Shown here one piece after another: positions 15,705 through 54,076 of a stretch of 64,000 nt of DNA (position 1 is the first letter of the stretch; every line of letters starts with the position of its first letter). The notes under the pieces were generated by a model, which saw nothing but the letters and a program-made list of their open reading frames with translations, was not told where the DNA came from and ran no database searches. The stretch is from Anaerolineaceae bacterium 4572_78. Lineage in GTDB: Bacteria > Chloroflexota > Anaerolineae > 4572-78. Position numbers and translations under genes: made by a program. Location of the stretch: NCBI GenBank assembly GCA_002084875.1, contig NBMH01000005.1:27284-91283 (forward strand). The letters are read 5' to 3'.

Positions 15705-15847
15705 TTTTAATATTCTCCTACATGCTAAAAAATTAAATTGTGAGTCTCTTTTATTGTACTAGTAATTAAATAGTAAGGCAAACGATTTAGAATAGGATTA
15801 AGAATTTAAGCGGATAAGAAACTCATGGCTCTTTGTGAATTGAAATC

Positions 15848-16002
15848 CACTCTCCCTCTGGGAGAGGGCTAGGTGTAGGGCTAGGGCTGTTAAACGCTGT
15901 TTTTTGACAAGATAAACTGGAGGGTCAAAGCTTGCTTTGACATGAAAAAAAGCAAGCTTTTTCGCTCCACTGTATGACCACATGTAAGGGCGTATGGCCA
16001 TA
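15848..16002. repeat. Composite element: R3 hairpin, degenerate TIR, a full R1 core with both arms and a partial R4
   Basis: CTCTCCCTCTGGGAGAGGG, then GGGCTGTTAAACGCTG, then TTTTTTGACAAGATAAACTGGAGGGTCAAAGCTTGCTTTGACATGAAAAAAAGCAAGCTTTTTCGCTCCA, then GTAAGGGCGTATGGCCATAG. Confidence 0.85.
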
Positions 16003-17995: not shown

Positions 17996-18029
17996 CCTGG
18001 AGCGTCAAAGCTTGCTTTGACGCTCCAGG
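17996..18029. repeat. Short-form R1: 34-nt palindrome CCTGGAGCGTCAAAGCTTGCTTTGACGCTCCAGG
   Basis: 16-nt arms around a TT centre (effectively a 15-bp stem with a 4-nt loop). It lies 22 nt after the phosphatase stop, with no U-tract. Confidence 0.9.
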
Positions 18030-18103: not shown

Positions 18104-18132
18104 GGCTGTGATTTAAAATTCAATAGAGAATT

Positions 18133-18190
18133 AAAGCTTGTTTTGACAGTCACGGCAAGCATTGACACTCCAAATTTTTATGACCATGTA
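18133..18190. repeat. Degenerate R1 copy in the thiB leader
   Basis: AAAGCTTGTTTTGACAGTCACGGCAAGCATTGACACTCCA, then TTTATGACCATGTA. Confidence 0.6.
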
Positions 18191-19636: not shown

Positions 19637-19699
19637 GTAGGGGCAGTCCTTGTGGTTGCCCTCATTACTTGGAGCGTCAAAGCTTGCTTTGACGCTCCA
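19637..19699. repeat. Degenerate R4 plus a short-form R1 palindrome
   Basis: GTAGGGGCAGTCCTTGTGGTTGCCCTCATTAC, then TGGAGCGTCAAAGCTTGCTTTGACGCTCCA (19670-19699). It lies between the secG stop and the SBP start. Confidence 0.85.
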
Positions 19700-19714
19700 G
19701 TAATCTTGATTATC

Positions 19715-21383: not shown

Positions 21384-21433
21384 TGGAGTGAAAAAGCTTG
21401 CTTTTTCATGTCAAAGCAAGCTTTGACACTCCA
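21384..21433. repeat. Long-form R1 core
   Basis: TGGAGTGAAAAAGCTTGCTTTTTCATGTCAAAGCAAGCTTTGACACTCCA. It lies 11 nt after the SBP stop and 25 nt before the next ATG. Confidence 0.9.
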
Positions 21434-26500: not shown

Positions 26501-28051
26501 TTCGGTGATGACCTGAAAGACCACCTCCGATTGGGCATAATTTTGATATGTTTCATTTTGCGGAGGGTATGCTTGAATAAACCATTCGCCAGGCATAAGA
26601 TTGGTTATTTGAAAATTACCTGTTTGGTCAGTAATGCTAGTTTTGGGGTGCATATCATTTTCTGATAAGGCTCCAACTACCCCTCCTACAACAGGTGAAC
26701 CATCGGGTAAAACCACCCGTCCTAAAATTGAGGTAGATAATTGTTCTTCTAAATAGAAGTCAATATTTTTGGTTATGGTATAAACCGTAACGATATCGGC
26801 TGACCATTCATTAAATTGATGGTCATAAAACTGCATGCCATATCCTAGAACATCTATCCATACTTTGTAATCCCCTGCTAAGAGATTGCTAATGGTATAC
26901 GTTCCTGTGGCATCAAATTCTGTGGTCTCACTTTGCCATACACCATCGCCAGGTAATAATGTTGTATTGCTAATTGATACTGCTCTGACAGTTCCATGTG
27001 TAATGGGCATAGTGCCATCCACATTTGTGGCTCTACCTGATATTTTCGCCTCAATTGGCAGATAAAAATTAGTACCTCTTACAATTCCATCTGAAACAAT
27101 AACAATGCTAGGATTACTCAAATCAAAGATATTGTTGTATGCCATTGGGATATAGCCTGATGCTTGTACTAAGACATGGTATTCCCCAGCAGTTAAATTT
27201 GTGAAGGTATAATGCCCACTGGCATTAACTTGAATAAAATCAATGACACCATCTGTAACGCGTTCTATAAAAACAGTGGCATTGGTAATGGGGTTATGGT
27301 TAATATCATGCACTCGCCCAGCAATACCGCGTTGAGGCTCTAAGGTAAAGTTTTTATTGGTAGCGGTCATGCCGACCGTAATTGTTACCTCATCAGCCGT
27401 AGCCCAACTAGGCTTGTTATTATAAAATTGAGGTACAAAACTAGGTGCAGTAGCAAGCAATTTATATTGTCCAACAGCTAAACCTTTAATGGCATAAGTG
27501 CCATCACTGTTAACAAATTCACCCATCCATGGGGTGGTGTTAGGATCTTCAGTAATATTTTTAGCAGAGACGATAACATTTGTTATAGGAATAGATGAAT
27601 CTACAGTCCCTACAACAGAACCACCAGCCCCAAGAATAAAATTAATATCATTGGCAACCGACTGGTTTGTGGTTACGGTTATAAGCGTTGCCTGCTGAGG
27701 ATAGTAGGCATCAGGAAAATCGCTTGAGTAAAACTCGGAGGCGTACCCAAATTTTCCGACGCGGACATAGTAGTTCCCTTCTTCTGAAATCATGAGGGCA
27801 TAATCCCCTTCATTGTCGGTGGTGGTGGTAACTACTGGAGTTTGAGCATTGGGTAATAAAGCTATTACGGTAACACCAGGAATAACCATATCGGAATTAT
27901 CAAAAATTTGTCCGTTTATACTTCCAATATTTTCAGTGATATTTTCTTCTCCTTTGACGGTAAGAGTATTGCTAGAGAATAATATCAAAAGTAAAAGTAT
28001 AAAGCTTGTGCCTAAAGAGAGTGAAAAAATAAATGATTTAAGTGTTTTCAT
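23510..28051 (-). CDS. Large secreted protein built from many carboxypeptidase-regulatory-like / Ig-like beta-sandwich repeats
   Basis: 1513 aa. N-terminal signal-like MKTLKSFIFSLSLGTSFILLLLILF. It has many (roughly 15-20) repeats of the type G.V.D..G.P+.GA.V......T.TD.NG.Y.+..L..G.Y. It ends in ..SEYIYLPIILK*. It contains an in-frame repeat-element insert at 24943-25082. Confidence 0.7.
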   Translation of the reverse strand: MKTLKSFIFSLSLGTSFILLLLILFSSNTLTVKGEENITENIGSINGQIFDNSDMVIPGVTVIALLPNAQTPVVTTTTDNEGDYALMISEEGNYYVRVGKFGYASEFYSSDFPDAYYPQQATLITVTTNQSVANDINFILGAGGSVVGTVDSSIPITNVIVSAKNITEDPNTTPWMGEFVNSDGTYAIKGLAVGQYKLLATAPSFVPQFYNNKPSWATADEVTITVGMTATNKNFTLEPQRGIAGRVHDINHNPITNATVFIERVTDGVIDFIQVNASGHYTFTNLTAGEYHVLVQASGYIPMAYNNIFDLSNPSIVIVSDGIVRGTNFYLPIEAKISGRATNVDGTMPITHGTVRAVSISNTTLLPGDGVWQSETTEFDATGTYTISNLLAGDYKVWIDVLGYGMQFYDHQFNEWSADIVTVYTITKNIDFYLEEQLSTSILGRVVLPDGSPVVGGVVGALSENDMHPKTSITDQTGNFQITNLMPGEWFIQAYPPQNETYQNYAQSEVVFQVITETKTIELTNPLTLTKVSVRGHVVDFDSNSVHKAIIHVYNHDYSVLEHTISRQDGNFQFGGLPTGSYTVEVSSPWGAGGMGLLPPPAKLFVITDTNYMVDLGGISFEQSLKRIVGSVVAIPSQNAVEHVAVVAVQQEDWNWIHVLTNKNGEFELTASPGTWEVSVYPIFNHGAVEWMFADETQIVQFADDNSPEEKQADFIVQDTDATIIGQIQGPPIIPRKAISITVYDTDGGMFNIAPVDFSGNFTVPVVAGVYNVDIEIDETKYPNWHAPFVSPLDVDVGRTNDIGVIQLQNKTSVIMGQVIRSDDDIPVSNVMVHVWQHHGDSISTLTDADGKYHIAVVAADDNQQSSIYAQAKEWLVQVTPPYTSTYVSQPPQRIKVTKDMTATVDFELTPTSNVIQGHVHDANGVPLIDVDGWAYARESDKLRPLAASPIENGQFSMNVPQGTYQIGIWLAPNSGYSISQEQAIDVAKIPPQPLPFEGEEHQETPVQRGHGIMVRQERFSKTFLALTVKPEFDAPDEVSLPHKPSTQQETYTVTFTLLSNDSIIQGEFYTRNATGEEEAVSNLKGEVFALSDEGAWQVTRIDANTGQYELPVSAGTWHLGYSLVSTQYLKYAIPNESVVITHSSTATQNFTVLLADSTIRGIIKNPDGDNQNFAQVWAYYAGSETYPEIFIEDDSEGNGYFEMHVPSGIPYQVGAYGPIHWDMMQPTMQVITPTANSVISLTLQFKEKGGTILGTAYYLEQGTKTLAPESLVWAWSKDGHHTSTRTDSTGDFTLNVVTGTTWYIGANYNPENSAIYYETITPTTVVMSTTNQTADIVMQQAPNSFPEGVVDTFDPAVGWSYTLDDGTHIEIPGGAMPTTDTVRISITPSVDNLLNTRLSRPLRYSYYFSVYENSSGKQIVSDFNTNIIMTWYYTKNELESLGINEDDLSIAFLSADISAWAGVDSVSIDKEANRITAQINHFSCWTMMSSQEMEEVTLPVNSEYIYLPIILK
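24943..25082. repeat. Composite R1 variant, R2a, TIR-like and R3 insert inside the 1513-aa CDS, read through in frame
   Basis: CTGGAGCGTCAAACTCTGGTTTGACAG, then CAAGAAAGGTTTTCGAAAACCTTTCTTG, then CGTTGAACAGGGG, then CTCCTCTCCTTCAAAGGGGAGGGGTTGGGGTGG. The minus-strand translation is IPPQPLPFEGEEHQETPVQRGHGIMVRQERFSKTFLALTVKPEFDAPD. Confidence 0.85.
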
Positions 28052-28221
28052 TATTTGTTTTCCTTTCGTTAATTAATAATAAGAGCTATGATTTATAAAA
28101 TAAAAAGCTAAACCTTTCTCTAAATATATTGGGATATACCTCCTTTCAAGTTTGATATACAAAAAACGTGTAACTGTTTACCTCGCCCCAATATGGAGCG
28201 GGGAATTAGGAGAAAGGAATC

Positions 28222-28515
28222 TTACTCCTTTTTTCCTCGTAGGGGAAGGGACTGGGGGTTGAGGTCTGTTTGCTCCCATGCCTGCAAAATTTCCCGATTG
28301 ACAGACACATTACCTAAAAACGACTCCCGCCAAGCATCATTCCCAACCCTATCCGCTTTTTCCATCAACAAAGCATGAGCCTCTTTCAAGGTAACTTGAG
28401 CCTGCTCATCAAGACCTGCTTTTTGAAATACCCGATACACAGTCAGATAAACATGCAAGGAGTCTTCAATACCTTTAATGCCATGCTCTGCCAGCCAGTA
28501 TTGAATTTGCCTCAT
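28222..28515 (-). CDS. C-terminal fragment of the cyclase-STAND-TPR protein, in a shifted frame
   Basis: The 97-aa ORF MRQIQYWLAEHG..AHALLMEKADRVGNDAWRESFLGNVSVNREILQAWE looks like the usual tail of TPR-type STAND regulators. It overlaps the end of ORF 28475-32377 by 41 nt in another frame. Its last 12 codons lie in an R3 G-rich module. Confidence 0.6.
   Translation of the reverse strand: MRQIQYWLAEHGIKGIEDSLHVYLTVYRVFQKAGLDEQAQVTLKEAHALLMEKADRVGNDAWRESFLGNVSVNREILQAWEQTDLNPQSLPLRGKKE
28235..28266. repeat. R3 G-rich module forming the last codons of ORF 28222-28515
   Basis: CCTCGTAGGGGAAGGGACTGGGGGTTGAGGTC. It encodes ..DLNPQSLPLRG.., and the last two codons (KE) and the stop follow just outside the module. 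Confidence 0.7.
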
Positions 28516-31500
28516 GGGCTGATCCCCACTTACCTAAACTTTCTAATGGCAAACCAAGATAGGTTAGACTAAAACCTTTTCCTCGTTTGTCACCTATATC
28601 CTGCTGGATATTTATAGCTTGTTCACAATAATTCTGAGCATTTTCATATTCGCCCAAAGCATGACAAACAAGACCTATATTATGTAACCCAATTGCTTTT
28701 GCAAAGCTATTATTAATGGTATGGAAAATACTTATTGCTTGAGAAAGTTGTTTTTTCGCTAAAAGATAATTGCCAATATTTTGGTAAACTTGCCCTAAAC
28801 CACCTGATGCATAAGCTATTCCTTGTCGAAAACCGATTTTGCGAAATATATCTAAGGCACGTTTACGATATTGATGTGCGTCGTAAGCATAACCTTGTGT
28901 ACAAAGTGGATTACTCGAATTAAATAAAACCATTCCCTCGCCAAAAAGATCCCCTATAGCCTGTCTAATAGTAAAGTCTTGACGATAATAGTCTTGAGCT
29001 ATCTGGTTTTCCCCTAATTCAAAATGAATATTACCTAACACTGTAAGAATATATGCCTTACTTTGTTTTTCAGAAGTAGATTCAAATATAGTTAATGCTT
29101 GCTTACCATAGGTAATTCCTTCTTCATATCTACTTTGCCGTTGAACTATAACTGATAAACGACTGAGACTTTTCCCTTCGATACTTCTATTTTTAACTTG
29201 CCTGGCTATATCAAGAGCTGTATTGGTTACTGAAATAGCTTTGTTATACCTACCAACCTGTTCATAATAAGCCGACTGGCGATTATAAACTTTAGCCTGC
29301 TCCTCCTTATCATCCCATGCCTTAGCAATCATCAACAATGCTTCTAAATCAGGCAGTTGTAAATCCCGTTTTCCCATGCGGTTGTAAACTATCTCACGGG
29401 TTGAAATGAGGTCGAATAGCTCTTCCTCTAAAGATTTATTTTGCATGGTTGAGAAGATGGTTTTAATGTTAGCTAGGTCTTGTTCTATATCTAACAATCC
29501 TAAAGCACGATTGAGATAATCAACAGCCATTTCATTAGCAAATTGAGCGGCGGCTTGCTTGCCTGCTAACGTACAGTAATTGCGTTCTTGCTCACGATTT
29601 TCGGCATGATAGTAGTGGTGTACCAAAAGAGAGTAATATGGAGCTAGGCTTTCTTCGGTTTGGTTGTAGGTATTTTCGTACCATTGAGCAACAACGGTAT
29701 GAAATTGGCGGCGTTGGGAATAAAGAAGGGTGCTGTAGGCAACTTCTTGGGTGATAATATGTTTGAAAATATACTGCATATTTAGCATATCATCTGAAAT
29801 CATGCTTTCAGGTGACTCATAAGGAGTCAGGTCTAAGTAAACCAATGAGTCTAGATAGGTACGCAAACGTCTGTAGCTAACAGATTTAGGGTAGATAGCA
29901 TTAAGGGTATTAAATGCAAATGTTCTGCCGATGACCGAAGCTACTCGAACCGTTAGATATGTTTCAGGGGGTAAGCGGTCAATCCGAGCCATGACAACTC
30001 CTTGTATATTATCGGGCAGAGTCAGCTGTTCTAAAGAACCTGAAAGCAGACAACGGTTATGACCATTTACACTCTGAATGGAAATGACATTTTCATCACG
30101 TAATGTGTGAATTAACTCCTCTGCAAAGAAAGGATTTCCCTGTGAACGTTCCTTGATTAATGTGGTCACTTCTTCAGGAAATTCAGATACATCCAAGCGG
30201 TATTTAATCAAATCAATAATTTCTGCATCACTGAATATGTCCAATGTCATTACTTTTGTATTGGGCAAACTGGTTAAAGCAACATACTCCAGCCTCATTT
30301 CTTCGCCTTGCAGTGGACGAAGTGGAACAAGCAAAAGCACAGGATAATCTTCTAAACTTCGTGCCACTTCTAAAGCAAGTTCCCATGAAGAAGGGTCAAG
30401 CCAATGAGCATCTTCAATGGTGATAATGAGCGGTGTATTTTGCAATTCAGCCCGTAGCAAGTCAATCAACAAAGAGGTTAAACTCTCACGCCGTAGTTTA
30501 GGGTCAAGGCTTTGAGTTAGTTCATTCTCAGGCAAACCTACATTTAGAATATCATTGAGAAGCGGACTTCGTTGTATCAAACTAGGATTTAGGTCATGTA
30601 TCCGATTTTCAATGTATGCATGGCGTTCAGATTGGTTTTTACCCTCCAATTGCTCAATATTGAAGAATCGAAAAAAGATGTCACGCCAAACGCGGTACGG
30701 GGTGTTTTGTTCAATGCTGAGACCTGCTCCCATTAAAACTCTTATGTTTAACTCTTGAGCCAAACGATGAATTTCAGCCACGAAACGTGATTTGCCAATT
30801 CCTGCTTCACCTTCAATAAATAACACATGGCTATGAACATTTGGAGTGTCAAATTTTGCTTTGACGGTCAAACTAAGGTTTGACGCACCAGGTGCAAGGT
30901 TTGACGTGCCAGATGCAATATTATCTAGGATTGATTTAATTTTGCTTAATTCTTGTTCACGCCCAACGAATTTAGTTTCAGTTGATATTATTGCTAAGGA
31001 TTGAAAAGCTATCTTACCAATAGGAAAATATAGGGGAACAGGATGAGTTTTACCTTTCACTTTGACAGGCGGCAATGTCTTAAATCTAATCCGATTTTTA
31101 GCAGATTTGTATGTATCTTCGTCGCATCTAATAGGAACATCAGTTGGGTCTTTAAGATATGCTTTGGCTGCCACACCCATTAAACGAGCTGCCATGTTTG
31201 CCTTATCACCCATGACAGTGTATTCACGCCGTGTTTCGCCGCCAACTGGACCTGTAAAAAGTTGCCCTGTTGTCATGCCGATAGCAACTGTAATCCCATG
31301 TTGTTTGATATTTTTCTGCAAGTCTAGGGCAAAACGAACACATCGTTCGGGGTCATTTTCATGCGAAAATGGTGGAGCTCCAAATAAGGCTAATATCATG
31401 GTGCCTTTATCATCAACTGAAACACGTACAATACGTCCATCATATTTATGAATAATGGTCTCAGTGGTTGTAAACAAAACCTGCAATTGGTCAAGGATAT

Positions 31501-32377
31501 TTTCTTTTTTATAGTCAATCCCTGTCATAGCCTTGATAAATACAACCGTTAAACGGCGGAGTTCAGCTAACCATTCCGCTTGGTCGGCTTCAATGCGATG
31601 GGTGATAGTATCGGGAACGTAGGCTTGTAAGGCTTCAATAACAGCCTCTTGTTGGATTTCTGATAATGTATGCCAATCAGTATGCGAGACCTGACAGGTT
31701 TTTGAAAACCTGTCAGGTCTTAATAAATCTTTCGCTTCGGGACTAAGTACAACATCACCCTTTTCAGCAATTGCTTCCGCTTCGGAGATTTGACGGAGTG
31801 GGTCGCCAGTAATGACATAATCCCAACTGACAAATTCTCCTTGCTCAAACGTTCCGCCGATGTTCATGGCGATAATTTCGCCCGCTCCAATGCTGACTGT
31901 CATATCGAGTTCAATGGAACCGATAATTGTCTCGACGTGACGGTATTCAGCACGCATGACTGCTTGCATTGCTTGAGCGGTCTGTTCGGCTTGTGAAACT
32001 GTATACCCTAGTTTGTCATCGGTTGAAGGAAAAACAACAATCATGGCATCCCCACCAAATTTGACCACCTGTCCTCCCTCTTTTTCAGTCAATTCAATCA
32101 TTCTGCTAAAATAAAGATTGAGGACACGGGTTAATTCCTCTGCTCCTTCAGGACCCTTCCGTGATAATTTCTCTGCCAATGGTGTAAAACCTGATACATC
32201 TGCAAAGAGAATAACCGCTTGATATCGGGTCAAATTGTATCTTTGTGGTAGCCCCTGATTATGATAAATTGTTTGGGCTACGACTGGTGGAACATAACTA
32301 GCTAATTTTATAATATCGTTTATTGCCACAGAAACTCCTTTCAGGATTAGGTGTTTTAACTCACGTAGCATGGACAT
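28475..32377 (-). CDS. Signal-transduction protein: two class III nucleotidyl cyclase domains, a STAND-type P-loop ATPase (AAA_16-like) and TPR repeats
   Basis: 1300 aa. CHD1 has ILFADVSGFTPLAE..KFGGDAMIVVF. CHD2 has ..GAPPFSHENDPERCVRFAL..EYTVMGDKANMAARLM. Walker A is GEAGIGKSRF and Walker B is LIITIEDAHWLD. The C-terminal half is TPR-rich. Two repeat-element segments lie in frame, at 30842-30916 and 31687-31720. Confidence 0.85.
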   Translation of the reverse strand: MSMLRELKHLILKGVSVAINDIIKLASYVPPVVAQTIYHNQGLPQRYNLTRYQAVILFADVSGFTPLAEKLSRKGPEGAEELTRVLNLYFSRMIELTEKEGGQVVKFGGDAMIVVFPSTDDKLGYTVSQAEQTAQAMQAVMRAEYRHVETIIGSIELDMTVSIGAGEIIAMNIGGTFEQGEFVSWDYVITGDPLRQISEAEAIAEKGDVVLSPEAKDLLRPDRFSKTCQVSHTDWHTLSEIQQEAVIEALQAYVPDTITHRIEADQAEWLAELRRLTVVFIKAMTGIDYKKENILDQLQVLFTTTETIIHKYDGRIVRVSVDDKGTMILALFGAPPFSHENDPERCVRFALDLQKNIKQHGITVAIGMTTGQLFTGPVGGETRREYTVMGDKANMAARLMGVAAKAYLKDPTDVPIRCDEDTYKSAKNRIRFKTLPPVKVKGKTHPVPLYFPIGKIAFQSLAIISTETKFVGREQELSKIKSILDNIASGTSNLAPGASNLSLTVKAKFDTPNVHSHVLFIEGEAGIGKSRFVAEIHRLAQELNIRVLMGAGLSIEQNTPYRVWRDIFFRFFNIEQLEGKNQSERHAYIENRIHDLNPSLIQRSPLLNDILNVGLPENELTQSLDPKLRRESLTSLLIDLLRAELQNTPLIITIEDAHWLDPSSWELALEVARSLEDYPVLLLVPLRPLQGEEMRLEYVALTSLPNTKVMTLDIFSDAEIIDLIKYRLDVSEFPEEVTTLIKERSQGNPFFAEELIHTLRDENVISIQSVNGHNRCLLSGSLEQLTLPDNIQGVVMARIDRLPPETYLTVRVASVIGRTFAFNTLNAIYPKSVSYRRLRTYLDSLVYLDLTPYESPESMISDDMLNMQYIFKHIITQEVAYSTLLYSQRRQFHTVVAQWYENTYNQTEESLAPYYSLLVHHYYHAENREQERNYCTLAGKQAAAQFANEMAVDYLNRALGLLDIEQDLANIKTIFSTMQNKSLEEELFDLISTREIVYNRMGKRDLQLPDLEALLMIAKAWDDKEEQAKVYNRQSAYYEQVGRYNKAISVTNTALDIARQVKNRSIEGKSLSRLSVIVQRQSRYEEGITYGKQALTIFESTSEKQSKAYILTVLGNIHFELGENQIAQDYYRQDFTIRQAIGDLFGEGMVLFNSSNPLCTQGYAYDAHQYRKRALDIFRKIGFRQGIAYASGGLGQVYQNIGNYLLAKKQLSQAISIFHTINNSFAKAIGLHNIGLVCHALGEYENAQNYCEQAINIQQDIGDKRGKGFSLTYLGLPLESLGKWGSAHEANSILAGRAWH
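30842..30916. repeat. R1-derived segment with a triplicated TTTGACG..CCA arm inside the cyclase-STAND CDS
   Basis: TGGAGTGTCAAATTTTGCTTTGACGGTCAAACT, then a 21-nt tandem duplication: AAGGTTTGACGCACCAGGTGC (30875-30895) and AAGGTTTGACGTGCCAGATGC (30896-30916). It encodes ASGTSNLAPGASNLSLTVKAKFDTP. Confidence 0.8.
31687..31720. repeat. R2b perfect palindrome (16+16 nt, 2-nt centre) inside the cyclase-STAND CDS
   Basis: AGACCTGACAGGTTTT TG AAAACCTGTCAGGTCT. It encodes RPDRFSKTCQVS in the segment between the two cyclase domains. Confidence 0.9.
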
Positions 32378-32513
32378 CTTGTCCGTAGCATTGGCAACAG
32401 GATGGCACCCTTTCTACATGATAAACTCAACTGAAATTTAGCCTAATCGTCTACATTTAACAAAACTAAATCTACTCTGTCTGGATTGATAACAAACGTA
32501 TCTAAAGTAATTA

Positions 32514-32654
32514 TTCATCCCCATTTTGTCAGTAGACCACACCCCCGCCTCTCCCAGTGAACAGGGAGGGGAGCAGTCACTTCATCACGCAGGCGGGTTG
32601 ATTGAGGTAGTGGCGTACGGCCGTACGCCACTACAACTAGCATTGAACAGACCT
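32514..32654. repeat. Composite element: TTTGTCAGTAGACC module, R3, R4 perfect palindrome and TIR-like end
   Basis: R4 GTAGTGGCGTACGGCCGTACGCCACTAC at 32607-32634 and TAGCATTGAACAGACC at 32637-32652. It lies between the cyclase start and the zinc-ribbon stop. Confidence 0.85.
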
Positions 32655-33784: not shown

Positions 33785-33803
33785 TTATATTAACGGTAAT
33801 TAT

Positions 33804-35891
33804 TCACTCTCTCTCATTAGTCGACTTCAAGCCCAGCCCTTCCCCTGCCGACACATAATAATTTTCATGTGACAGCCATGATTCCATTTCTATGGCAGGA
33901 ACACGGCATAAATTATGTGGGTCAAATTCAGGCGAATACGGCGAAAGTGTCAATTGATTGATATCAGAAAAAGCATATTCTAATCGTAATTTGTTTGGGT
34001 CAAAACTTCCCACAGTAGTTTGCCACAATTTTTGGAATTTAGGGGATACGGTTTGATTGGTTCGCTTGGTAGGATAAGAACGAACTTCCATGCCAAGTTG
34101 GCGAATCATTTCAGTTGTTTCATGAGCATTATCAAATTTATTTTCTACAAGCCAATCGGGTAAACTGTTGTTGTGCCACATCAGAAAAGTGGCTCGCATG
34201 GGCCAATTAGCGGGATGTTCGGCATGAAATGATTTTAACATATCAATGACGGAATCTAAAGTGAGTGTTCCATGTGCTGAAGGCATAACACTTCCCATTG
34301 AGTTTACATCAAAGGTTAATACGATAGGTTTTTTACCAGCAGGCACCATGCTCAAATCCTTACTCGCCAAATCCGCCAAATTGACGGGATAAAACCCATC
34401 TGCTCGTAGGCGGCTTAAATCATGCCAAAAGTTATCAGAAGTGTATTGTCGGGAATTAAAAAGCGGGTATCTTAAAACCAAAACGTTCCCCGTCAAATTG
34501 ACGGGATACGATGGCGAGGCAGAAACAAATGATTCATAAGGCTGATATTGCATGTCCATGTCCCATACCATCCAGCCATATCCTTCACCATCTCTAGCTC
34601 CATTCATCTGCAAGCGAATTTCGTCGGCTGAAAAACTACGTTTGTCAAAGTTATAATCGGGAAATTGTTGTATCCATGGACGAATTTCTAATTTGGGATT
34701 GACCGCCTTCATTTGCTTGACCACCCTACGCATGCTGTAGTACAAAATTTCGTAGGGGAAATTAATGGCTTCTTGGTATTGGGGCATGTTCGGTAGCCCA
34801 TGCTCAAAAGTTGAGGGATAAAGCATGGGCGATAAAACATCGAGATAAGGAGCCATCATTTCAAGGCGTTGCCCAATGCCGCTATCACTTTGTTGCCAAA
34901 TTGTGTAGCCAAATACATCCGCTGCAATTTTAATATCGTAAGGTTGAAGAGCAGCATGGGCTTTTTTAATAAAACCTGTAATTGCCGACATGCGATTTTC
35001 TGGGGTGGATGATACAGAAAAAACAGTTCGGGTGATAAATCCATCGGTTGGAAAACGGATATAATCAAACTGAATTTCGTCAAATCCACGTTGAGCTGCT
35101 TCCACTGCTAAATCAATGCTATAATCCCAAGCGGCTTCTTCGGTTGGGTCTATCCAGCTTTGCCCTGTTTGGTCTCGCCATATATATCCCGTATAGGCAT
35201 CAATAACTGCCCATTCAGGATGGGCGACGGCTAGACGCTCATCCTTAAAAACAACAATGCGAGCAATCATGTATATGTTTCGTTCCTTAAACCATTTGCT
35301 GAAATCCGACCAATGCCCTACGATATCCCCACGATATGCTCCTACATCAAAAACAGTCTTAATGCTGGTGGTATAAGGCACTAATCCGTTATCACTTTTG
35401 ACATCAATAATAATCGCATTGAGTTCAGTCGTAGCTAGTAAATTCTGCACATGAGTACGAATTTCTTGATATTGAAGCCCGTAATAACCCAAATACACGC
35501 CTTTGATATAACCTGTATCACGGATTTTTGGAGTGATAGTTATGGGTAAATAGTTGCCACTAATGGTCAAATCGGCGGAGATGTGAGAAAGTATGAGTGG
35601 TTTGGGATAGTAACACTGTTTTCGATATTTGCATGACTTGGTATAGAGAATAACTGGGTCTTGATGGGGGTTTTCGATTTGGATAAGACTTGCTTGCCCA
35701 TGCAAAGGTTTTTTGGCAAGTGCAGGAAATGGAATAATGAACATAAAAGACCATACAGCAATGGCTAATATCAGCCATTTTTTGCCGTGATGTGTTGATA
35801 TATTAGAATTTAGAGGTTTAAGGTAGTCATGTATCATAAAGTTCATATTAACTGCTGGAGCGTCAAACCTTGGTTTGACATGAAAAAGCAA
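33804..35891 (-). CDS. Putative glycoside hydrolase (DUF4015/GHL-type TIM barrel) with a NodB-like C-terminal region
   Basis: 695 aa. ..LNAIIIDVKSDNGLVPY.., ..IARIVVFKDERLA.., ..SWIDPTEEAAWDYSIDLAVEAAQRGFDEIQFDYIRFP.. fit the DUF4015 pattern. The C-terminal ..KKPIVLTFDVNS.. resembles a degenerate polysaccharide deacetylase. The first ~15 codons (MLFHVKPRFDAPAVN) are an R1 copy, so the true start is probably the ATG at 35846 or 35837. Confidence 0.7.
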   Translation of the reverse strand: MLFHVKPRFDAPAVNMNFMIHDYLKPLNSNISTHHGKKWLILAIAVWSFMFIIPFPALAKKPLHGQASLIQIENPHQDPVILYTKSCKYRKQCYYPKPLILSHISADLTISGNYLPITITPKIRDTGYIKGVYLGYYGLQYQEIRTHVQNLLATTELNAIIIDVKSDNGLVPYTTSIKTVFDVGAYRGDIVGHWSDFSKWFKERNIYMIARIVVFKDERLAVAHPEWAVIDAYTGYIWRDQTGQSWIDPTEEAAWDYSIDLAVEAAQRGFDEIQFDYIRFPTDGFITRTVFSVSSTPENRMSAITGFIKKAHAALQPYDIKIAADVFGYTIWQQSDSGIGQRLEMMAPYLDVLSPMLYPSTFEHGLPNMPQYQEAINFPYEILYYSMRRVVKQMKAVNPKLEIRPWIQQFPDYNFDKRSFSADEIRLQMNGARDGEGYGWMVWDMDMQYQPYESFVSASPSYPVNLTGNVLVLRYPLFNSRQYTSDNFWHDLSRLRADGFYPVNLADLASKDLSMVPAGKKPIVLTFDVNSMGSVMPSAHGTLTLDSVIDMLKSFHAEHPANWPMRATFLMWHNNSLPDWLVENKFDNAHETTEMIRQLGMEVRSYPTKRTNQTVSPKFQKLWQTTVGSFDPNKLRLEYAFSDINQLTLSPYSPEFDPHNLCRVPAIEMESWLSHENYYVSAGEGLGLKSTNERE

Positions 35892-35892
35892 G
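35855..35892. repeat. R1 variant (CTGGAGCGTCAAACCTTGGTTTGACATGAAAAAGCAAG)
   Basis: It has the same arm variant as 24943-24970 and 63962-63988. It overlaps the annotated 5' end of the hydrolase ORF. Confidence 0.8.
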
Positions 35893-36026
35893 TTCCACCA
35901 CTAGGGCTTATTCTCATTCCATCATACATCATGATTCATTTTTTGTCAATTCTAATTTTTAATTTTTATTTTGAATACTACAAAACAGTTGTTTTAAGCC
36001 AACTTATTCAAACATAACTCCTAAAT

Positions 36027-38435: not shown

Positions 38436-38469
38436 AAACAAGAAAGGTTTTTAAAAACCTTTCTTGTTT
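38436..38469. repeat. R2a perfect 34-nt palindrome AAACAAGAAAGGTTTTTAAAAACCTTTCTTGTTT
   Basis: 17+17 nt with no spacer. It lies in the hypF-hydrolase intergenic region. Confidence 0.9.
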
Positions 38470-39085: not shown

Positions 39086-40110
39086 AAATGACAAAAGATA
39101 TTGGTCGTATCGTTCTTGACCATGGTACAGGGGGCTTGTTAAGTGAAGATTTGATTTCCTCTATTATCATTCCTCGTCTTGGAAGCGTATCAACAGGGGA
39201 ATTGGCCGATAGTGCAGTTCTTGATATGCATGGCAAAAAGATTGCGGTTACGACTGACTCATTTTCAATTGACCCCATATTTTTTGGTAACGGTAATATT
39301 GGTAAAGTGTCCGTGTGTGGCACCATTAATGATTTGGCGGTTAGTGGTGCCACGCCATTGTATTTGACTTTAGCATTTATTATTGAGGAAGATTTCCCGC
39401 TTGCTGACTTTGAACAAATTTTAGATTCTGTTCGTGAAGCGGCACAGGAAGCACAAGTACATATTGTTGCTGGGGATACGAAGGTTGTTGGGTTAGGGGA
39501 GGCAGATAAAATTTTTGTCAATACGACAGGGATTGGTTATTTTAAGCATGGGCGAACACATATCTCGCCACGCAATATTCGCAAAAATGATAATATCATC
39601 GTTACTGGTTTGTTGGGCAATCATAGTATTCATATTCTTTCTATTCGAGAAGGGCTTGGGTTTGAATCGCGAGTTTTAAGTGATTGTGCTCCCTTAAATG
39701 GCATGATTGCTCAAGTGCTTGAAGACCATGCTCCTGATATTCATTTTATGCGGGATTTGACACGAGGTGGATTGGGGAGTGTCTTAAGTGAAGTTGTTGC
39801 TTTATCGGGATTAGGTGTTGAAATTACAATGGATAAACTTCCAATGCAATATGAGATGAAAATGGCAGCCGACATGTTAGGTATTAACCCTATTTATCTA
39901 GCAAATGAAGGGAATATCAGCATGTTTGTTTCACCTAAAGCCACTAATGATATTCTTAACAAAATTAGACAGCATCCTTATGGTAAACATGCTTCTGTTG
40001 TGGGGCATGTAACAGATGACTTAATTAAAAGAGTTATTGGATTGGGTGATGATGGACAAATCACCATTATTGAACCGTTGTATGGTCGAGAACTGCCACG
40101 CTTATGCTGA
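39082..40110 (+). CDS. hypE: Hydrogenase maturation protein HypE (PurM-like, C-terminal Cys carrier)
   Basis: 342 aa with a PurM/AIR-synthase-like fold signature (..DSAVLD.., ..VCGTINDLAVSGATPLYL.., ..IVAGDTKVV..). It ends ..GRELPRLC*, which is the HypE PR[IL]C terminal cysteine. Confidence 0.9.
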   Translation: MKMTKDIGRIVLDHGTGGLLSEDLISSIIIPRLGSVSTGELADSAVLDMHGKKIAVTTDSFSIDPIFFGNGNIGKVSVCGTINDLAVSGATPLYLTLAFIIEEDFPLADFEQILDSVREAAQEAQVHIVAGDTKVVGLGEADKIFVNTTGIGYFKHGRTHISPRNIRKNDNIIVTGLLGNHSIHILSIREGLGFESRVLSDCAPLNGMIAQVLEDHAPDIHFMRDLTRGGLGSVLSEVVALSGLGVEITMDKLPMQYEMKMAADMLGINPIYLANEGNISMFVSPKATNDILNKIRQHPYGKHASVVGHVTDDLIKRVIGLGDDGQITIIEPLYGRELPRLC

Positions 40111-40185
40111 CTCTTTTTAGGCTTTTTGGGAATTAAAATAGAATTAGGAATGTAATGGCTTTGTAACCATTCACACACCACCCGA

Positions 40186-40334
40186 GGGCTGTTTAATGCA
40201 CATGGCTTGGGAGATTTTTCGATATGATTTTCAATCACATGGTCGCACAATGGAGCGAAAAGGCTTGCTTTTTCATGTCAAAACAAGCTTTGACGCTCCA
40301 ATTTATCTTGTCAAAAAATAGCATTGAACAGCCC
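40186..40334. mobile_element. Most complete MITE-like unit: TIR-like ends flanking a full R1 core with both arms
   Basis: GGGCTGTTTAATGCA (40186-40200) and TAGCATTGAACAGCCC (40319-40334) are inverted. Inside are CACATGGTCGCACAATGGAGCGAAAAGGCTTGCTTTTTCATGTCAAAACAAGCTTTGACGCTCCAATTTATCTTGTCAAAAAA. It has no coding capacity. Confidence 0.5.
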
Positions 40335-40493
40335 TATCATGTGACTGACCTAGAACTGACTCCTTGGGAAAGTCCCTTGTGGAAAATTGAGGATTGGCGA
40401 CCGAAGTAGAATCGCGGAGCACAATAGCTTTAGCTAGTGCATGCAAAGAATATAACCGTTCGCCCTTCCCAAAAATGAAATACACTCTAGTAT

Positions 40494-40614: not shown

Positions 40615-41127
40615 ATGTTAATTCAAAAAAAGATATGCTTACTTGGTGACTTTTCTGTTGGCAAAACCAGTCTGGTTCGCCGCTTTGTGGAAGGTGAATT
40701 TGACGACAAATACCTAAGCACACTAGGGGCAAAAGTCAATCGCAAAACCCTAAATTATCAGCATGAGCAACCCACCGAATTAAAATTATTAATTTGGGAC
40801 ATTGCTGGGGGGGAAAAATTTGATATGATGATGCGTAGTTATTATAATGGCTCCAGTGGTGCTATTTTGATTTGTGATTTGACACGTCCAGAAACATTAG
40901 ATTCTTTAGATAAATACATTCATAATTTCTGGAATATCAACCCAGATACCCCTTTTGTCATAGCAGGCAACAAAGCTGATCTAATTGAAGATAATGCCGC
41001 TACCATGAAGGAGTTAGATAAAATAGCTACCCAAAATCAGATGGCTTATTTTATTACCAGTGCTAAAACAGGTCAAAATGTTGAATCACTATTTCATCGT
41101 TTGGGGGAATTACTCTTATCGAATTAA
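40615..41127 (+). CDS. Ras/Rab-like small GTPase
   Basis: 170 aa with all five G motifs: G1 GDFSVGKT, G2 STLG, G3 WDIAGGE, G4 NKADL, G5 SAK. Gly replaces the Ras Gln61-equivalent residue in G3. Confidence 0.85.
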   Translation: MLIQKKICLLGDFSVGKTSLVRRFVEGEFDDKYLSTLGAKVNRKTLNYQHEQPTELKLLIWDIAGGEKFDMMMRSYYNGSSGAILICDLTRPETLDSLDKYIHNFWNINPDTPFVIAGNKADLIEDNAATMKELDKIATQNQMAYFITSAKTGQNVESLFHRLGELLLSN

Positions 41128-41972: not shown

Positions 41973-42001
41973 GAGGAGTTTTGAGTTGTATTCACTGTTA
42001 G

Positions 42002-42082
42002 CCCCCCCCCCCACCCCAGCCCTCTCCCAGAGGGAGAGGGAGTCCCCAGTTACTCCCCCACCCCCAGTGGGGAGAGGGAGTA
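42002..42082. terminator. C11 homopolymer followed by two GC-rich R3 hairpins between convergent genes
   Basis: The C-run is at 42002-42012. Hairpin 1 is CCCTCTCCC aga GGGAGAGGG (42020-42040, perfect 9-bp stem). Hairpin 2 is TACTCCCCCACCCC agt GGGGAGAGGGAGTA (42051-42082, imperfect). Confidence 0.45.
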
Positions 42083-42112
42083 AAATGAGGAGGGGGTCGC
42101 AAAGCTCAAGAC

Positions 42113-44308: not shown

Positions 44309-46711
44309 TTACTTCAATACAATTGGCAAATAGATAAAGTACTCGCTGACCGTCTCACCAATTGAGAGAATGGCACTCTCTTTAATGAGGGAATTATCAG
44401 CAAAGGAAGTGATAAAATCACGTCCATTAAGGTCATTGAGTTTTGTATCTGCTAGACGTAAGGTGACATTTGTTCCCACTGTGACATCTTCTGCCAAAGT
44501 CATGGAAATCGTTGCTATGTTACCATCGCCGCTCAGTTGTTTTGTATCAGCTAGAGCAATGCGTAGTTGACCCAGCCCATCATCATAAAATTCTAGATTG
44601 AAAGTTGTTGTCTTATCTCCTTTAGTGACATTACTGATACCACTAATAACATCTTTATCATAAATAACAACAAATTGACCACCTGCAAAGTTGTGTAAGT
44701 TTGTTGCTTGGAGAGTCATTTGAATTGTTGAGCCTGCCGCACCAATGACATCCACTAATGCAATGGTGGTTGTTTCACCAGACCTGACAGGTTTTTGATT
44801 GGTGGTCGGAATGGGGGGCCATTGACCATGAACAGCATAATACAAAATCATACTGGCATCAGCAGCTTCAATTATACCATTACCATTTGGGTCTCCCGCA
44901 AATATTTGTTCTTGGCTTGGAGGGCTAGGTGGTGTTTGCCCCACTGCAAATTGCAAACTTAATAAGGCATCGGCTGCCTGCACTACACCATTTCCATTCA
45001 AGTCACCCAAAACATATTGAGCCGTCTCTTCAACATAAAAAGTACCATCCTCTAATATTAGTGGCACAGGATTGAATAGGTCATCAGGGGTGTAAATCGT
45101 GGAACCACCGACATTACTAATAAAATCTTTCAGGTCAAGAGAACTTGTAACTGTCGCTGTATCATTTGCTGTCATAGCTTCCACTAGATAACAGTAAGTT
45201 GCTTTTGGAACTAGATTGCTATCTTCATCAAAATAAACCGTTTCTAAGACATTATCAGCGATTATATCAAAATTTAAGAAACTGCCTGTGCCATCATTTC
45301 TAAGCATGCGATAGATGCGATAATGGGTAACTTCAGCATTATTGGTAACATTCCAATCTAGTTCGATGTTTCGATGCCCTGCTTCGACTTGGAGCATGAT
45401 AGGGACGATACCTGGTGGAACAGGTATCGGTGTTGCTGTTGGTGCAGGGGTCATGGTTTGTGAAGGGGTAGTGGTTGGGGTATTAGGTGTCTGACTTTCA
45501 GTTGCACATTTGTAAATTTTTGAATCGACGTTTTTAGTAGAATCATTTTGATTATTAGCCACAGCTAAATATGACTCATTATCAATTGTGAAAAACTCCC
45601 AATCTTCTGCACCATTAGTCAAAATAAGTTGACTTTCAGTAAAACTACTACCATTCCATTGATAAATCACAGAATTGATAACTTTAGTTGAGCCATCGGA
45701 AACATTAGCTACAACCAAATAGTGATTATTGTCAATACTAAAGAATTTCCAATCACGAGCACCTTGCGTAAGTATACTTTGAAATTCAATAAAACTGTTA
45801 CCATCCCACCGATAAATCACGGAATTGATATTCGAGGCGGAGTCATTATTGGTATTAGCTACAGCAAGATAGTGATTGCTATCAATGGTGAAAAACTCCC
45901 AATCATGTCCTCCACTAGTGAGAATGGATTGAAATTCAATAAAATTGGCACCATTCCATCTATAAATCTTGGAATTGATGTTACGAGTAGAACCATTAAA
46001 ATAATTACCCACCACTAAATATTGAGTATTATCAATGACAAAATATTCCACATCTTGAGCTCCTGTGGTGAGTATGGATTGGTATTCCACAAAGTTTGTG
46101 CCATTCCATTTGTAGATTTTGGAATAAACATCGCGGTCGGTATTTGTGCCGTCACAGTAGTTAGCCATAGCTAAATAATCGTCACTATCAATGGTGAAAA
46201 ATTCCCAGTCATTGCCGCCAATGGTGGGAATGGATTGAAATTCCTCAAAACTATTACCATTCCATTTGTAAATCTTTGAGTCGATATTCCAGTTAGAATT
46301 ATCATTATTGTTAGCCACAGCTAAATAATCGTCACTACCAATGGTGAAAAATTCCCAATCCCAAGCATTGTAAGTAAGTATGGATTGATATTCCACGAAG
46401 CTACTACCATTCCATTGATAAATCTTTGAATCAACACTGGTTGTATAAAGCTCTCCACGATTAGCAACGGCTAAATACGAAACATTATCTATCGTGAAAA
46501 ATTCCCAGTCTTTAGCTCCACTAGTTGGGATAGACTGAAATTCCTCAAGTTGCAATTCTTGAGACAAAGCCGACGATGTACTATCACTTATTATCATGCT
46601 CAGAGTGGCAATAATAATGGTGATGATTAGAAAAATTAAATCTTTTATTATTATACCTGTTGTGTTTGATTGGGGCAAATTTGGGTAATAGAAATATAAG
46701 AAAATTGGCAT
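44309..46711 (-). CDS. Secreted or anchored multidomain protein: seven EAR/EPTP-like propeller repeats, P/T linker, FN3, dockerin, cohesin-like domain and a conserved C-terminal tail
   Basis: 800 aa. There are seven repeats of ..SKIY+WNG.SF.E+QSI.T.GA.DWEFFTID...YLAVAN.. (aa 56-402). FN3-like region at aa ~436-525. Two EF-hand-like dockerin loops, GDLNGNGVVQAADALLSLQF and GDPNGNGIIEAADASMILYY. A cohesin-like beta domain at aa ~648-785. It ends SEYFIYLPIVLK*. Confidence 0.7.
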   Translation of the reverse strand: MPIFLYFYYPNLPQSNTTGIIIKDLIFLIITIIIATLSMIISDSTSSALSQELQLEEFQSIPTSGAKDWEFFTIDNVSYLAVANRGELYTTSVDSKIYQWNGSSFVEYQSILTYNAWDWEFFTIGSDDYLAVANNNDNSNWNIDSKIYKWNGNSFEEFQSIPTIGGNDWEFFTIDSDDYLAMANYCDGTNTDRDVYSKIYKWNGTNFVEYQSILTTGAQDVEYFVIDNTQYLVVGNYFNGSTRNINSKIYRWNGANFIEFQSILTSGGHDWEFFTIDSNHYLAVANTNNDSASNINSVIYRWDGNSFIEFQSILTQGARDWKFFSIDNNHYLVVANVSDGSTKVINSVIYQWNGSSFTESQLILTNGAEDWEFFTIDNESYLAVANNQNDSTKNVDSKIYKCATESQTPNTPTTTPSQTMTPAPTATPIPVPPGIVPIMLQVEAGHRNIELDWNVTNNAEVTHYRIYRMLRNDGTGSFLNFDIIADNVLETVYFDEDSNLVPKATYCYLVEAMTANDTATVTSSLDLKDFISNVGGSTIYTPDDLFNPVPLILEDGTFYVEETAQYVLGDLNGNGVVQAADALLSLQFAVGQTPPSPPSQEQIFAGDPNGNGIIEAADASMILYYAVHGQWPPIPTTNQKPVRSGETTTIALVDVIGAAGSTIQMTLQATNLHNFAGGQFVVIYDKDVISGISNVTKGDKTTTFNLEFYDDGLGQLRIALADTKQLSGDGNIATISMTLAEDVTVGTNVTLRLADTKLNDLNGRDFITSFADNSLIKESAILSIGETVSEYFIYLPIVLK
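44779..44795. repeat. Half R2b arm (AGACCTGACAGGTTTTT) inside the propeller-cohesin CDS
   Basis: It encodes KPVRS in the dockerin-cohesin linker. The same peptide and DNA occur at 54194-54209. Confidence 0.7.
45506..46546 (-). repeat. Seven tandem ~47-50-codon EAR/EPTP-like blades (coding repeat)
   Basis: The core DWEFFTI / DVEYFVI / DWKFFSI recurs seven times, each followed by YL(A/V)VAN and SKIY.WNG. Confidence 0.8.
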
Positions 46712-48579: not shown

Positions 48580-48643
48580 AAGACAAGAAAGGTTTTTAAA
48601 AACCTTTCTTGTCTTGATTGTCAAAGCAAGCTTTGACGCTCCA
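48580..48643. repeat. R2a perfect 36-nt palindrome plus a half R1 core between convergent genes
   Basis: AAGACAAGAAAGGTTTTT|AAAAACCTTTCTTGTCTT (48580-48615), then GATTGTCAAAGCAAGCTTTGACGCTCCA. It lies 16 nt after the sat-cysC stop and 12 nt from the PIG-L stop. Confidence 0.9.
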
Positions 48644-49491: not shown

Positions 49492-49581
49492 AGACCTGTC
49501 AGGTCTAACCAAAGAACATGGTCACACAATGGAGCATCAAATCGCTTGCTTTTTCATGTCAAAGCAAGCTTTGAACAGCCC
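49492..49581. repeat. Collapsed R2b (AGACCTGTCAGGTCT) plus an R1 core fused to a truncated TIR
   Basis: CATGGTCACACAATGGAGCATCAAATCGCTTGCTTTTTCATGTCAAAGCAAGCTTTGAACAGCCC. Confidence 0.85.
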
Positions 49582-49747
49582 TATTATATCGTCAGTTTAT
49601 TATTGTGGCTTTTGATTAATTTGGCAAATTTAGCATAAGAATCGTGTGGTTAATGATTAAATCACACTGATTTTGGTAGGTGTTGTCTTTAACTTACAAT
49701 CATGGTATAATATTAAGAGGAAACAAAAAATTTGTGAGAAAATAAAT

Positions 49748-52621: not shown

Positions 52622-52721
52622 GTTAGAAATCCAATTTTTCCAAAACAGGTTCTTTGGAGCGAAAAAGCTTGCTTTTTCAGGTCAAAGCAAGCTTGGACCC
52701 TCCAAAATTGAATTTCCAAAA
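52622..52721. repeat. R5 hairpin with an R1 core inserted in its loop, the 'filled' form
   Basis: GTTAGAAATCCAATTTTTCCAAAA, then [CAGGTTCTT TGGAGCGAAAAAGCTTGCTTTTTCAGGTCAAAGCAAGCTTGGACCCTCCA], then AAATTGAATTTCC. Compare 38359-38394. Confidence 0.85.
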
Positions 52722-54025: not shown

Positions 54026-54076
54026 CGGGAGCGAAAAAACTTGCTTTTTCATGTCAAGGCAAACCTTGAAGCTCCA
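54026..54076. repeat. Long-form R1 core (diverged) in the leader of the giant gene
   Basis: GGGAGCGAAAAAACTTGCTTTTTCATGTCAAGGCAAACCTTGAAGCTCCAG. Confidence 0.8.

Follow-up and report, generated by a model that had tools for sequence, protein, structure and literature searches.

Nested families of REP- and MITE-like hairpin repeats in a 64-kb stretch of a Chloroflexota genome

The window analyzed here is a 64,000-nucleotide (nt) stretch of contig NBMH01000005.1 of Anaerolineaceae bacterium 4572_78. Between and within its genes lie short, repeated hairpin modules of at least five inter-related families, designated R1, R2/R5, R4, M1, and M3 (Table 1). [quoted passage not shown] Profile and repeat counts agree that such a superfamily is present. 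Of the 24 intergenic gaps that measure 40 nt or more, 15 contain modules; the number rises to 17 when the copies at 19670 and 21384, which overlap predicted start codons, are counted. Occupancy is thus about two thirds of the gaps rather than almost all of them. They cover 33% of the intergenic bases and 3.6% of the window and occur in tandem, convergent, and divergent gaps alike.

The R1 unit is an 18-nt palindrome (G-TCAAAGC-WW-GCTTTGA-C) enclosed by an outer TGGAGC/GCTCCA stem. R1-short is a 30-nt single unit, a perfect palindrome at 17997 and 19670, and R1-long is a 50-nt form with the adjacent palindromes GAAAAAGCTTGCTTTTTC and GTCAAAGCAAGCTTTGAC, which can also fold as one long hairpin. 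A profile search with nhmmer identified 18 R1 loci in the window, in line with the count of about 18 made by eye, with starts at 2269, 4301, 9545, 15918, 17998, 18126, 19670, 21384, and 24943 in the first half of the series and at 30842 (a double copy), 35856, 40251, 48608, 49530, 52655, 54028, 54353, and 63963 in the second. Solo copies have no flanking direct repeat and hence no visible target-site duplication. The density of R1 is 0.28/kb in the window and ~0.15/kb (the fetching copy of each locus excluded) in about 107 kb of extra DNA, which brings the DNA surveyed to 171 kb in total. By extrapolation from about 0.15 to 0.3/kb, the genome would hold hundreds to more than 1,000 copies. Exact matches to the consensus account for 22 of 51 R1 core 18-mers, and this low divergence among copies fits recent amplification.

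Pairing is maintained where the palindromes vary. In the R1 core, 4 of 8 base pairs show compensatory change, with 7 cells altered on both sides, compared to 1.4 ± 1.0 in shuffles (0/500). R2 and R5 proved to be one 34-nt scaffold, AGAC-xxxxx-AGGTTTT..AAAACCT-yyyyy-GTCT, in which the five variable positions read AAGAA/TTCTT, CTGAC/GTCAG, or CTGTC/GACAG. Here 6 of 16 pairs show compensatory change, in 20 cells compared to 7.1 in shuffles (0/500), and 95.7% of cells are paired. R4 (GTAGGGGCGTAYGGCCRTACGCCCCTAC) is a GC-rich palindrome of 28 nt with perfect arms of 14 + 14 nt (-21.8 kcal/mol, z = -5.8) and the GTAG...CTAC build of GTAG-type REPs; its tag, GTAG (GTAA in 2 copies), is base-paired with CTAC at the opposite end. 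Its stems form sub-families, TATGGCCATA versus TACGGCCGTA (3 versus 4 copies), plus GTAGTGG/CCACTAC, and 4 of its cells are compensated, compared to 1.6 in shuffles (2/500). Sliding of the partner abolished pairing in the R1 core, R2/R5, and R4 alike, and all modules fold far below their shuffles (z = -4 to -10). Full R2 palindromes number four in the window (24974, 38437, 48581, and 54225), whereas R5 is complete at 31687 and partial or short at 44780, 54194, and 49492. This total of about eight compares with the nine or so R2 palindromes and two R5 hairpins that had been claimed; the perfect arms were borne out. R4 is represented by two full copies (4274 and 32607) and one half copy (15984) instead of the four proposed, and the 3 copies in the window are among 8 in the 171 kb.

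M1 and M3 are longer elements with terminal inverted repeats (TIRs), each found at more than 10 loci in the 171 kb. M1 is about 135 to 151 nt long, contains R1, and ends in AGGGCTGTT(T/C)AATGCTA. Its 16-nt terminus (GGGCTGTTCAATGCTA) gave 11 matches at ≤3 mismatches, compared to 0.49 expected; none of 100 shuffles reached 11, and the figure agrees with the roughly 11 TIR-like modules first reported. M1 takes a short form of ~135 nt (loci L006 and L007), a long form (the type specimen and L098), and a one-ended form that stops at ...GCGACCACATG. The type specimen (40185-40335) is 151 nt long, has 15-nt inverted termini that are 93% complementary and 121 nt apart, and folds as single-stranded DNA at -29.6 kcal/mol, compared to -16.3 ± 2.6 for shuffles (z = -5.2). 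M3 is an element of ~125 nt with two G-rich hairpins between the ends GTAACCGTTCACCCC... and ...GGAGTGAATAATTAC, and its inverted ends, GTAACCGTTCAC and GTAATTATTCAC, are complementary at 9 of 12 positions. It was found at 10 loci in the window, and complete copies lie at L090 4973-5097 and L100 7123-7248. At least nine separate G-rich hairpins (R3) had been listed; the number holds, but they are copies of this one element.

These dimensions raise the possibility that M1 and M3 are classical MITEs, that is, internally deleted insertion sequence (IS) derivatives moved by a DDE transposase through TIRs of 12 to 17 bp, with the palindromes as passengers that have decayed to solo copies. The inverted termini are far above chance, 125 to 150 nt is a typical MITE size, and the element at 8658-8829 carries M1 termini on an unrelated core, as expected of independent deletion derivatives of one parent. 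The genome also holds an active-looking IS1-family element (L093 15389-16199; InsA zinc ribbon plus DDE_Tnp_IS1). However, complete copies show no target-site duplication: the flanks of M1 (window copies at 40185 and 8658, L006, L007, and L098) and of M3 share no common direct repeat. A TA duplication of the IS630-like kind was rejected for M1, since TA is present only after the R1-proximal end. The IS1 element was likewise rejected as the parent of M1 because it has its own, unrelated 25-nt termini (GGTAGTCCTG...), and no IS with M1 or M3 ends was found in the 171 kb. In addition, solo R1, R2, R4, and R5 copies are sharply bounded and more numerous than complete M1, which argues that they are not simply decayed MITEs. 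The earlier assignment to MITEs thus stands for size, copy number, and TIRs and not for target-site duplication or a parent IS, neither of which was found in the 171 kb. We consider the classical model possible but unlikely. Contigs of two other assemblies stop exactly at the IS1 element, a typical IS assembly break.

The modules are joined into nested composites. Those at 2224-2337, 4241-4336, 15848-16002, 48580-48643, 9539-9560, and 49561-49581 read as first described, and certain junctions are used repeatedly. In most copies, GTAACCGTTCACC, an end of M3, adjoins the left M1 terminus; R4 comes after CAATGCTAGTT at six loci; and a fusion of the terminus to R1 (AGGGCTGTTCAAAGCTTGC) was found at six loci, sited at a common TCAA(T/A)GCT microhomology. 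The sequence-only reading took the terminus/R1 junctions for deletions; because they recur, they point to inherited subfamilies and not to independent deletions. A further palindromic family, absent from the sequence-only reading, is seen at L100 12380-12659 as a tandem ~26-nt unit (GGACGCTCTGCGTAGCAACGTATATA) adjoining an assembly gap, and a GGACGCTCTGCGTCC...GGACGCAGAGCGTCC palindrome of the same family is nested within an M3 copy at L008 257-297.

Nesting of this kind could also arise if no dedicated transposase were involved and hairpin-primed or template-switch copying, together with recombination and gene conversion between copies, spread the modules, as proposed for very small repeats of Nostoc. 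Consistent with this, the terminus/R1 fusion lies at a microhomology, modules nest at recurrent junctions, R1-long resembles R1-short plus an inverted partial duplication, and neither a target-site duplication nor a cognate enzyme was seen. We nevertheless judge this route improbable, since an enzyme may lie outside the 171 kb surveyed and since R4 belongs to a class whose accepted model is mobilization by REP-associated tyrosine transposases (RAYTs).

With respect to genes, about half of the intergenic copies start 11 to 40 nt past a stop codon (4336, 9538, 17997, 19670, 21384, and 48581). This placement, the very stable stems, and the pairing kept by compensatory changes would suit hairpins that serve the host as terminators, mRNA 3'-end stabilizers, or IHF or gyrase sites like those of bacterial interspersed mosaic elements (BIMEs), their repetition reflecting function under selection. 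R1-long is co-oriented with transcription in 7 of 7 cases in the window and, with the extra loci added, in 12 of 16 tandem gaps, 4 being anti-oriented; the 12:4 ratio is not significant, and an orientation bias was rejected. Moreover, the hairpins have no U-tract, and Rfam gave no match at gathering score over the whole window and none at E ≤ 1 on 40100-40420. Copies are also present in promoter gaps between divergent genes and in the leaders of genes, and at least three open reading frames (ORFs) contain copies in frame; the closest relatives manage without the modules; and near-identical copies argue for recent spread. A host function as the reason for the repetition is therefore doubtful, although secondary exaptation of some copies is possible.

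Several module copies are read in frame within long ORFs, from which the peptide ...LTVKAKFDTPNV... is predicted. ORF 28475-32377(-) encodes a STAND-type ATPase (adenylate cyclase, AAA_16, and TPR domains by Pfam), in which 24 R1-encoded residues sit between an "ASG" motif and the GEAGIGKS P-loop. When this ORF was compared with its homologues, the 24-residue insert was absent in 15 of 17 aligned sequences, and most of the 150 best homologues among 1.84 billion representatives align as two stretches, breaking exactly at the insert. The insert is the sole direct evidence in these data that an R1 cluster arrived by insertion. The "stop-free design" attributed to the elements was not upheld: open frames in M1, M3, R1, R2, R4, and R5 are not above those of composition-matched shuffles, and a better explanation for the survival of in-frame copies is that disruptive ones have been lost. 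The predicted starts at 19652, 21398, 35891, 38348, and 54099 lie upstream of or inside modules, and Pfam domains begin 40 to 110 residues later; the repeats probably inflate annotated N-termini. At the 3' end of a gene, the terminus ATAGGGCTG provides TA|G, the TAG stop (9537-9539) of the Vut_1 transporter gene 8892-9539. GTAG REPs have also been reported to donate stop codons to genes.

Table 1. Hairpin modules and composites located in the window
Feature	Coordinates	Strand	Composition or context
One-ended M1	2234-2330	+	Terminus, TTTTTTGACAAGATAAA, R1-long, ...GCGACCACATG
M3	4068-4198		Within predicted N-terminus (residues ~9-52) of VTT-domain ORF 3394-4224(-)
Composite	4241-4336		M3 fragment, terminus (4255-4270), R4 (4274-4301), half R1 (4301-4335); 19 nt past clpX stop
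M3	8526-8663	-	Adjoins M1b left terminus
M1b	8658-8829		M1 termini (18 nt, 89% complementary) flanking unrelated 136-nt core; core found once in DNA examined
Terminus/R1 fusion and half M3	9538-9686		Fusion (AGGGCTGTTCAAAGCTTGC...) plus right half of M3 (9597-9685); fusion TAG is stop of gene 8892-9539
Solo degenerate M1 terminus	13270-13285	-	3 mismatches; terminus search
Composite	15837-16002		M3 fragment, terminus, R1-long (15918-15969), half R4 (15984-16002); divergent gap
R1-short	17997-18028		Perfect 14+14 palindrome; stop codon 24 nt before
Degenerate R1	18126-18172	+	Two units; profile search
R1-short	19670-19700		Perfect palindrome; 40 nt past stop of secG-like ORF
Solo R1-long	21384-21433	+	Stop codon 11 nt before; outer stem with compensated change GGAGTG/CACTCC
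R1, R2, and M3 fragment	24943-25081		In frame, ~55 aa (...RQERFSKTFLALTVKPEFDAP...), within 1513-aa ORF 23510-28051(-)
M3	28180-28267		M3 copy
R1 cluster	30836-30907	-	24-aa in-frame insert ahead of Walker A loop, ORF 28475-32377(-)
R5	31687-31720		Perfect palindrome, in frame (...RPDRFSKTCQVS...), within ORF 28475-32377(-)
Composite	32507-32654		M3, R4 (32607-32634, compensated GTAGTGG/CCACTAC), terminus (32638-32653)
M3 right-end fragment	33796-33850	-	Right end of M3
R1	35855-35893	-	At predicted start of ORF 33804-35891(-); core shows compensated change (GTCAAACC..GGTTTGAC)
R2	38437-38468		Perfect palindrome; leader or predicted N-terminus of isochorismatase ORF
Type specimen, complete long M1	40185-40335		AGGGCTGTTTAATGC; spacer; R1-long (40251-40300); TTTATCTTGTCAAAAAA; right terminus TAGCATTGAACAGCCCT
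M3-like	41989-42098		G-rich double hairpin; convergent gap
Half R5	44780-44798	+	Within ORF 44309-46711(-)
R2 and half R1	48581-48643		R2 perfect palindrome (48581-48614), half R1 (48608-48643); convergent gap, 17 nt past stop codon
Composite	49492-49582		Short R5 (AGACCTGTCAGGTCT), inner M1 fragment, R1-long, terminus fusion variant; profile search
Solo R1-long	52655-52704	+	Gene 52728 start lies 24 nt downstream
Solo R1-long	54028-54076	+	Divergent copy; profile search
Composite	54194-54430		Half R5, R2 (54225-54257), R1 (54353-54382), M3 fragment (54389-54430); leader or predicted N-terminus of giant ORF starting 54099
R1 unit	63962-63987		Within giant ORF

Other features of the window were noted beside these modules. 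The gene directly downstream of the type specimen (40615-41127) encodes a eukaryote-like Ras/Roc-family small GTPase (Ras, 3e-38). The giant surface-protein gene at 54099-64000 (DUF11/CLIPPER; 4,073 aa in an ENA scaffold) reads as two overlapping frames (54099-58409 and 58312 onwards), which points to either a frameshift or a difference in assembly at around 58.3 kb, and it contains internal tandem repeats of ~1.37 to 1.42 kb (59.7 to 64 kb). At 45555-46510, repeats with a 150-nt period, 60 to 79% identical, correspond to EPTP domain repeats of an 800-aa protein with dockerin and cohesin; these are protein repeats, separate from the hairpin families. An F420-0:gamma-glutamyl ligase-like gene (7675-8506) appears split into ORFs 7675-8172 and 8279-8506, with Pfam covering profile positions 10 to 137 of 218, and may be a pseudogene or carry a frameshift.

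Contigs of two ENA metagenome assemblies ("DOMB18-1") and of the metagenome-assembled genome (MAG) GCA_029935775.1 carry genes identical to those of the window. Among GTDB species representatives, the nearest ClpX sequences are those of Ardenticatenia/Anaerolineae MAGs (67%), and the best match among 5.8 billion proteins is only 77% identical. The host is a sparsely sampled Chloroflexota lineage of ~40% G+C, and a cyanobacterial origin of the repeats (Nezha or small dispersed repeats [SDR]) was rejected on the basis of the ClpX affinity and of the name under which repeat-derived ORFs are recorded. All modules were present at five more loci of the same MAG (L090, L093, L096, L098, and L100; ~96 kb), and six contigs of a single JGI metagenome contain the exact R1 23-mer, at loci with no relation to the window; the repeats therefore extend beyond the stretch in which they were first noticed. 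When a profile was made of the peptide that R1 encodes (...LLFHVKASFDPPIYLVKK), it recovered 27 small ORFs, and mini-ORFs derived from the repeats are listed at NCBI as "Anaerolineaceae bacterium 4572_78." As had been proposed, the small "HVKASFD" ORFs are by-products, namely, translations of R1.

Because all of this sequence is metagenome assembled, and because N-gaps adjoin repeats at some loci, we considered whether the repeats are an assembly or chimera artifact. The same copies lie in the same places in three independent assemblies and others are found in the separate JGI metagenome; copies carry individual substitutions, and their gene contexts are intact. An artifact is scarcely credible.

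Outside the host lineage, the modules were not recovered, with one exception. The exact R1 23-mer had 0 matches in 185,579 species genomes, and no module was found in the clpX regions of 80 other bacteria (Chloroflexota and others; 1.3 Mb in total) or in the tig-clpP-clpX loci of the nearest relatives. M1 gave no blastn match against PLSDB plasmids, many cyanobacterial replicons included, and the R1 palindrome gave none in IMG/VR. A 17-mer of the M1 terminus had a single IMG/VR match (L106), which lacks any other module and is likely due to chance. Module strings did not occur in the searchable literature. The exception is R4. The 28-mer GTAGGGGCGTATGGCCATACGCCCCTAC (window positions 4274-4301 and 32607-32634) is identical in three IMG/VR viral contigs of 50 to 68% G+C, and variants are 93% identical in a Kovacikia plasmid (5 places) and 87% identical in a Nostoc megaplasmid (loci outside the window, L102 to L105 and L107 4003-4030). 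The Nostoc variant reads GTAGGGGCGCAAGGCCTTGCGCCCCTAC, and GCGCAAGGCCTTGCGC in this variant adds further compensated pairs. No match to R4 was found in phage genomes. These data establish that the modules are restricted to the host lineage, R4 excepted, and R4 is one REP-like palindrome common to different phyla. The view that the repeats belong to no named family accordingly holds as far as Rfam is concerned but not for R4, which has the build of GTAG-type REPs and an identical 28-mer in IMG/VR.

Taken together, the families are best explained as selfish, non-autonomous REP/BIME/MITE-like elements that have recently expanded and that would be mobilized by an HUH enzyme, a reading to which we assign a probability of roughly 0.55. 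In the proposed mechanism, an HUH tyrosine transposase (Y1, RAYT/IS200-like), with its gene in another part of the genome, would recognize the palindromes as hairpins of single-stranded DNA and copy them. Integration would leave the target site unduplicated and would often take place within or next to earlier copies, thereby producing nested mosaics and recurrent junctions. Copies would then be kept at any site that tolerates them, whether 3' of a gene, in a leader or a divergent gap, or, in frame, in a permissive loop of a protein. We infer mobility itself, the enzyme, and the single-stranded route because the hairpin and not the sequence is conserved, because no target duplication is visible, because R4 has the GTAG...CTAC build, and because REPs are known to make dimers, clusters, and intragenic inserts, the latter of 20 to 80 residues. 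GTAG REPs are a RAYT-associated class (PMC3733652). As a lead only, TIRs that flank tyrosine transposase genes have a GGGGWSAS motif (PMC3733652), to which the end GGGGTGAACGGTTAC of M3 is similar.

Several observations weigh against this interpretation. A search of the ORFs of at least 100 aa in the window with Pfam identified no transposase, integrase, RAYT, or Y1 protein, in agreement with the sequence-only reading, and neither the window nor the extra DNA yielded a transposase whose ends match, be it a RAYT, IS200-like, or of another kind; the IS1-family gene in L093 was the only transposase seen. CGTC-type REPs have no known transposase (PMC3733652), and the CGTC and GTAG tetranucleotides of R1 and R4 are base-paired, unlike the unpaired tags of described REP superfamilies. 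The TIRs of M1 and M3 suit HUH elements no better than they suit DDE-type MITEs, and arm-to-arm gene conversion, rather than hairpin selection, could be the cause of palindrome symmetry. Finally, the three assemblies, which are 99.8 to 100% identical, show no presence/absence difference of any element, only single-nucleotide polymorphisms, a 5-nt indel, and an N-gap, and for an empty-site comparison the relatives are too distant (best ClpX, 77%) and lack all modules. It is conceivable, though quite improbable, that this is a self-nesting hairpin system spread by an undescribed route, either an unrecognized single-stranded DNA enzyme or transposase-free, hairpin-templated copying onto hairpins, with R4 swapped across phyla, possibly by phages. 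The basis of the phage-exchange idea is the occurrence of the R4 28-mer both in 67%-GC viral contigs and in a 40%-GC Chloroflexota genome.

Both the sequences and the host lineage of this system are new, but it is of the well-described REP/BIME/MITE kind. Its main value concerns annotation: the repeats spawn spurious ORFs, with 27 "LLFHVKASFD"-type peptide clusters already in public protein sets, donate a stop to one gene, add 24 to 55 residues to real proteins, and inflate predicted N-termini. Assembly breaks were seen at IS1 and N-gaps beside other repeats, none of them attributed to the modules themselves. A poorly sampled, deep Chloroflexota lineage thus carries a dense REP/BIME-like repertoire, one module of which is common to cyanobacteria and high-GC phage-like contigs. 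Were a cognate enzyme to be found, the system would provide a compact case for the co-amplification and nesting of several hairpin families.

Among known systems, R4 was compared with the GTAG-tagged REPs and their RAYTs (Nunvar 2010, PMC2817692; Bertels & Rainey 2011, PMC3116915; Di Nocera 2013, PMC3733652). It shares with them a stable, GC-rich stem-loop palindrome within the range of 20 to 40 bp, the GTAG end, compensated stem variants, occurrence as singles or small clusters (L090 10100-10163), adjoining stem-loops, and presence in distant taxa. It differs in that GTAG is paired with CTAC, so that the element is fully symmetrical, in its few copies, and in that no RAYT gene was seen in the DNA surveyed. 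R1 superficially resembles the CGTC-tagged REPs (Di Nocera 2013; Rickettsia RPE-4 and RPE-6), which have CGTC followed by a stem of 8 to 9 bp starting with A/T, a loop of 4 to 5 nt, a short ...CCA end, and single, double, or clustered copies, also inside ORFs; in R1, CGTC is followed by the stem AAAGC/GCTTT with a WW center, and the element ends in ...GCTCCA. However, the CGTC of R1 pairs with GACG (pairs 1 to 3 of the 8-bp core plus the outer stem), contrary to the unpaired tag that defines those REPs, its stem and loop sizes differ, and it is further distinguished by an additional outer stem, TGGAG/CTCCA, and by a 50-nt form with two palindromes. With regard to REPINs, R1-long consists of two adjacent 18-nt palindromes in an outer stem, which can also fold as one long hairpin; it is not two inverted REPs, and no RAYT was seen in the DNA surveyed.

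M1 and M3 share with bacterial MITEs (Nezha of Anabaena/Nostoc, Correia/NEMIS, ERIC, and RUP; PMC3184786) a size of 125 to 150 nt, non-coding and multi-copy character, inverted termini, and strong structure; they differ from them in having no target-site duplication, no IS with the same termini in the 171 kb, and no PLSDB match. Like the modules described here, Escherichia coli BIMEs and pneumococcal BOX elements are mosaics of a few modules in variable order and orientation, with recurrent junctions and a mostly extragenic location; there is no sequence similarity, and the present system has more module types, including TIR-bounded elements of 125 to 150 nt. The SDR of Nostoc punctiforme (Elhai et al. 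2008) are reportedly very small repeats nested in other hairpin repeats, without an obvious transposase or target duplication. They are alike in nesting and, as far as checked, are set apart by a different phylum and apparently different sequences. Rickettsia palindromic elements, whose sequences are unrelated to those of the window modules, and other intragenic REPs form in-frame inserts in ORFs; the modules would likewise add ~20 to 55 residues at permissive sites, as in ORF 28475-32377 (24 aa, ahead of the P-loop) and ORF 23510-28051 (~55 aa).

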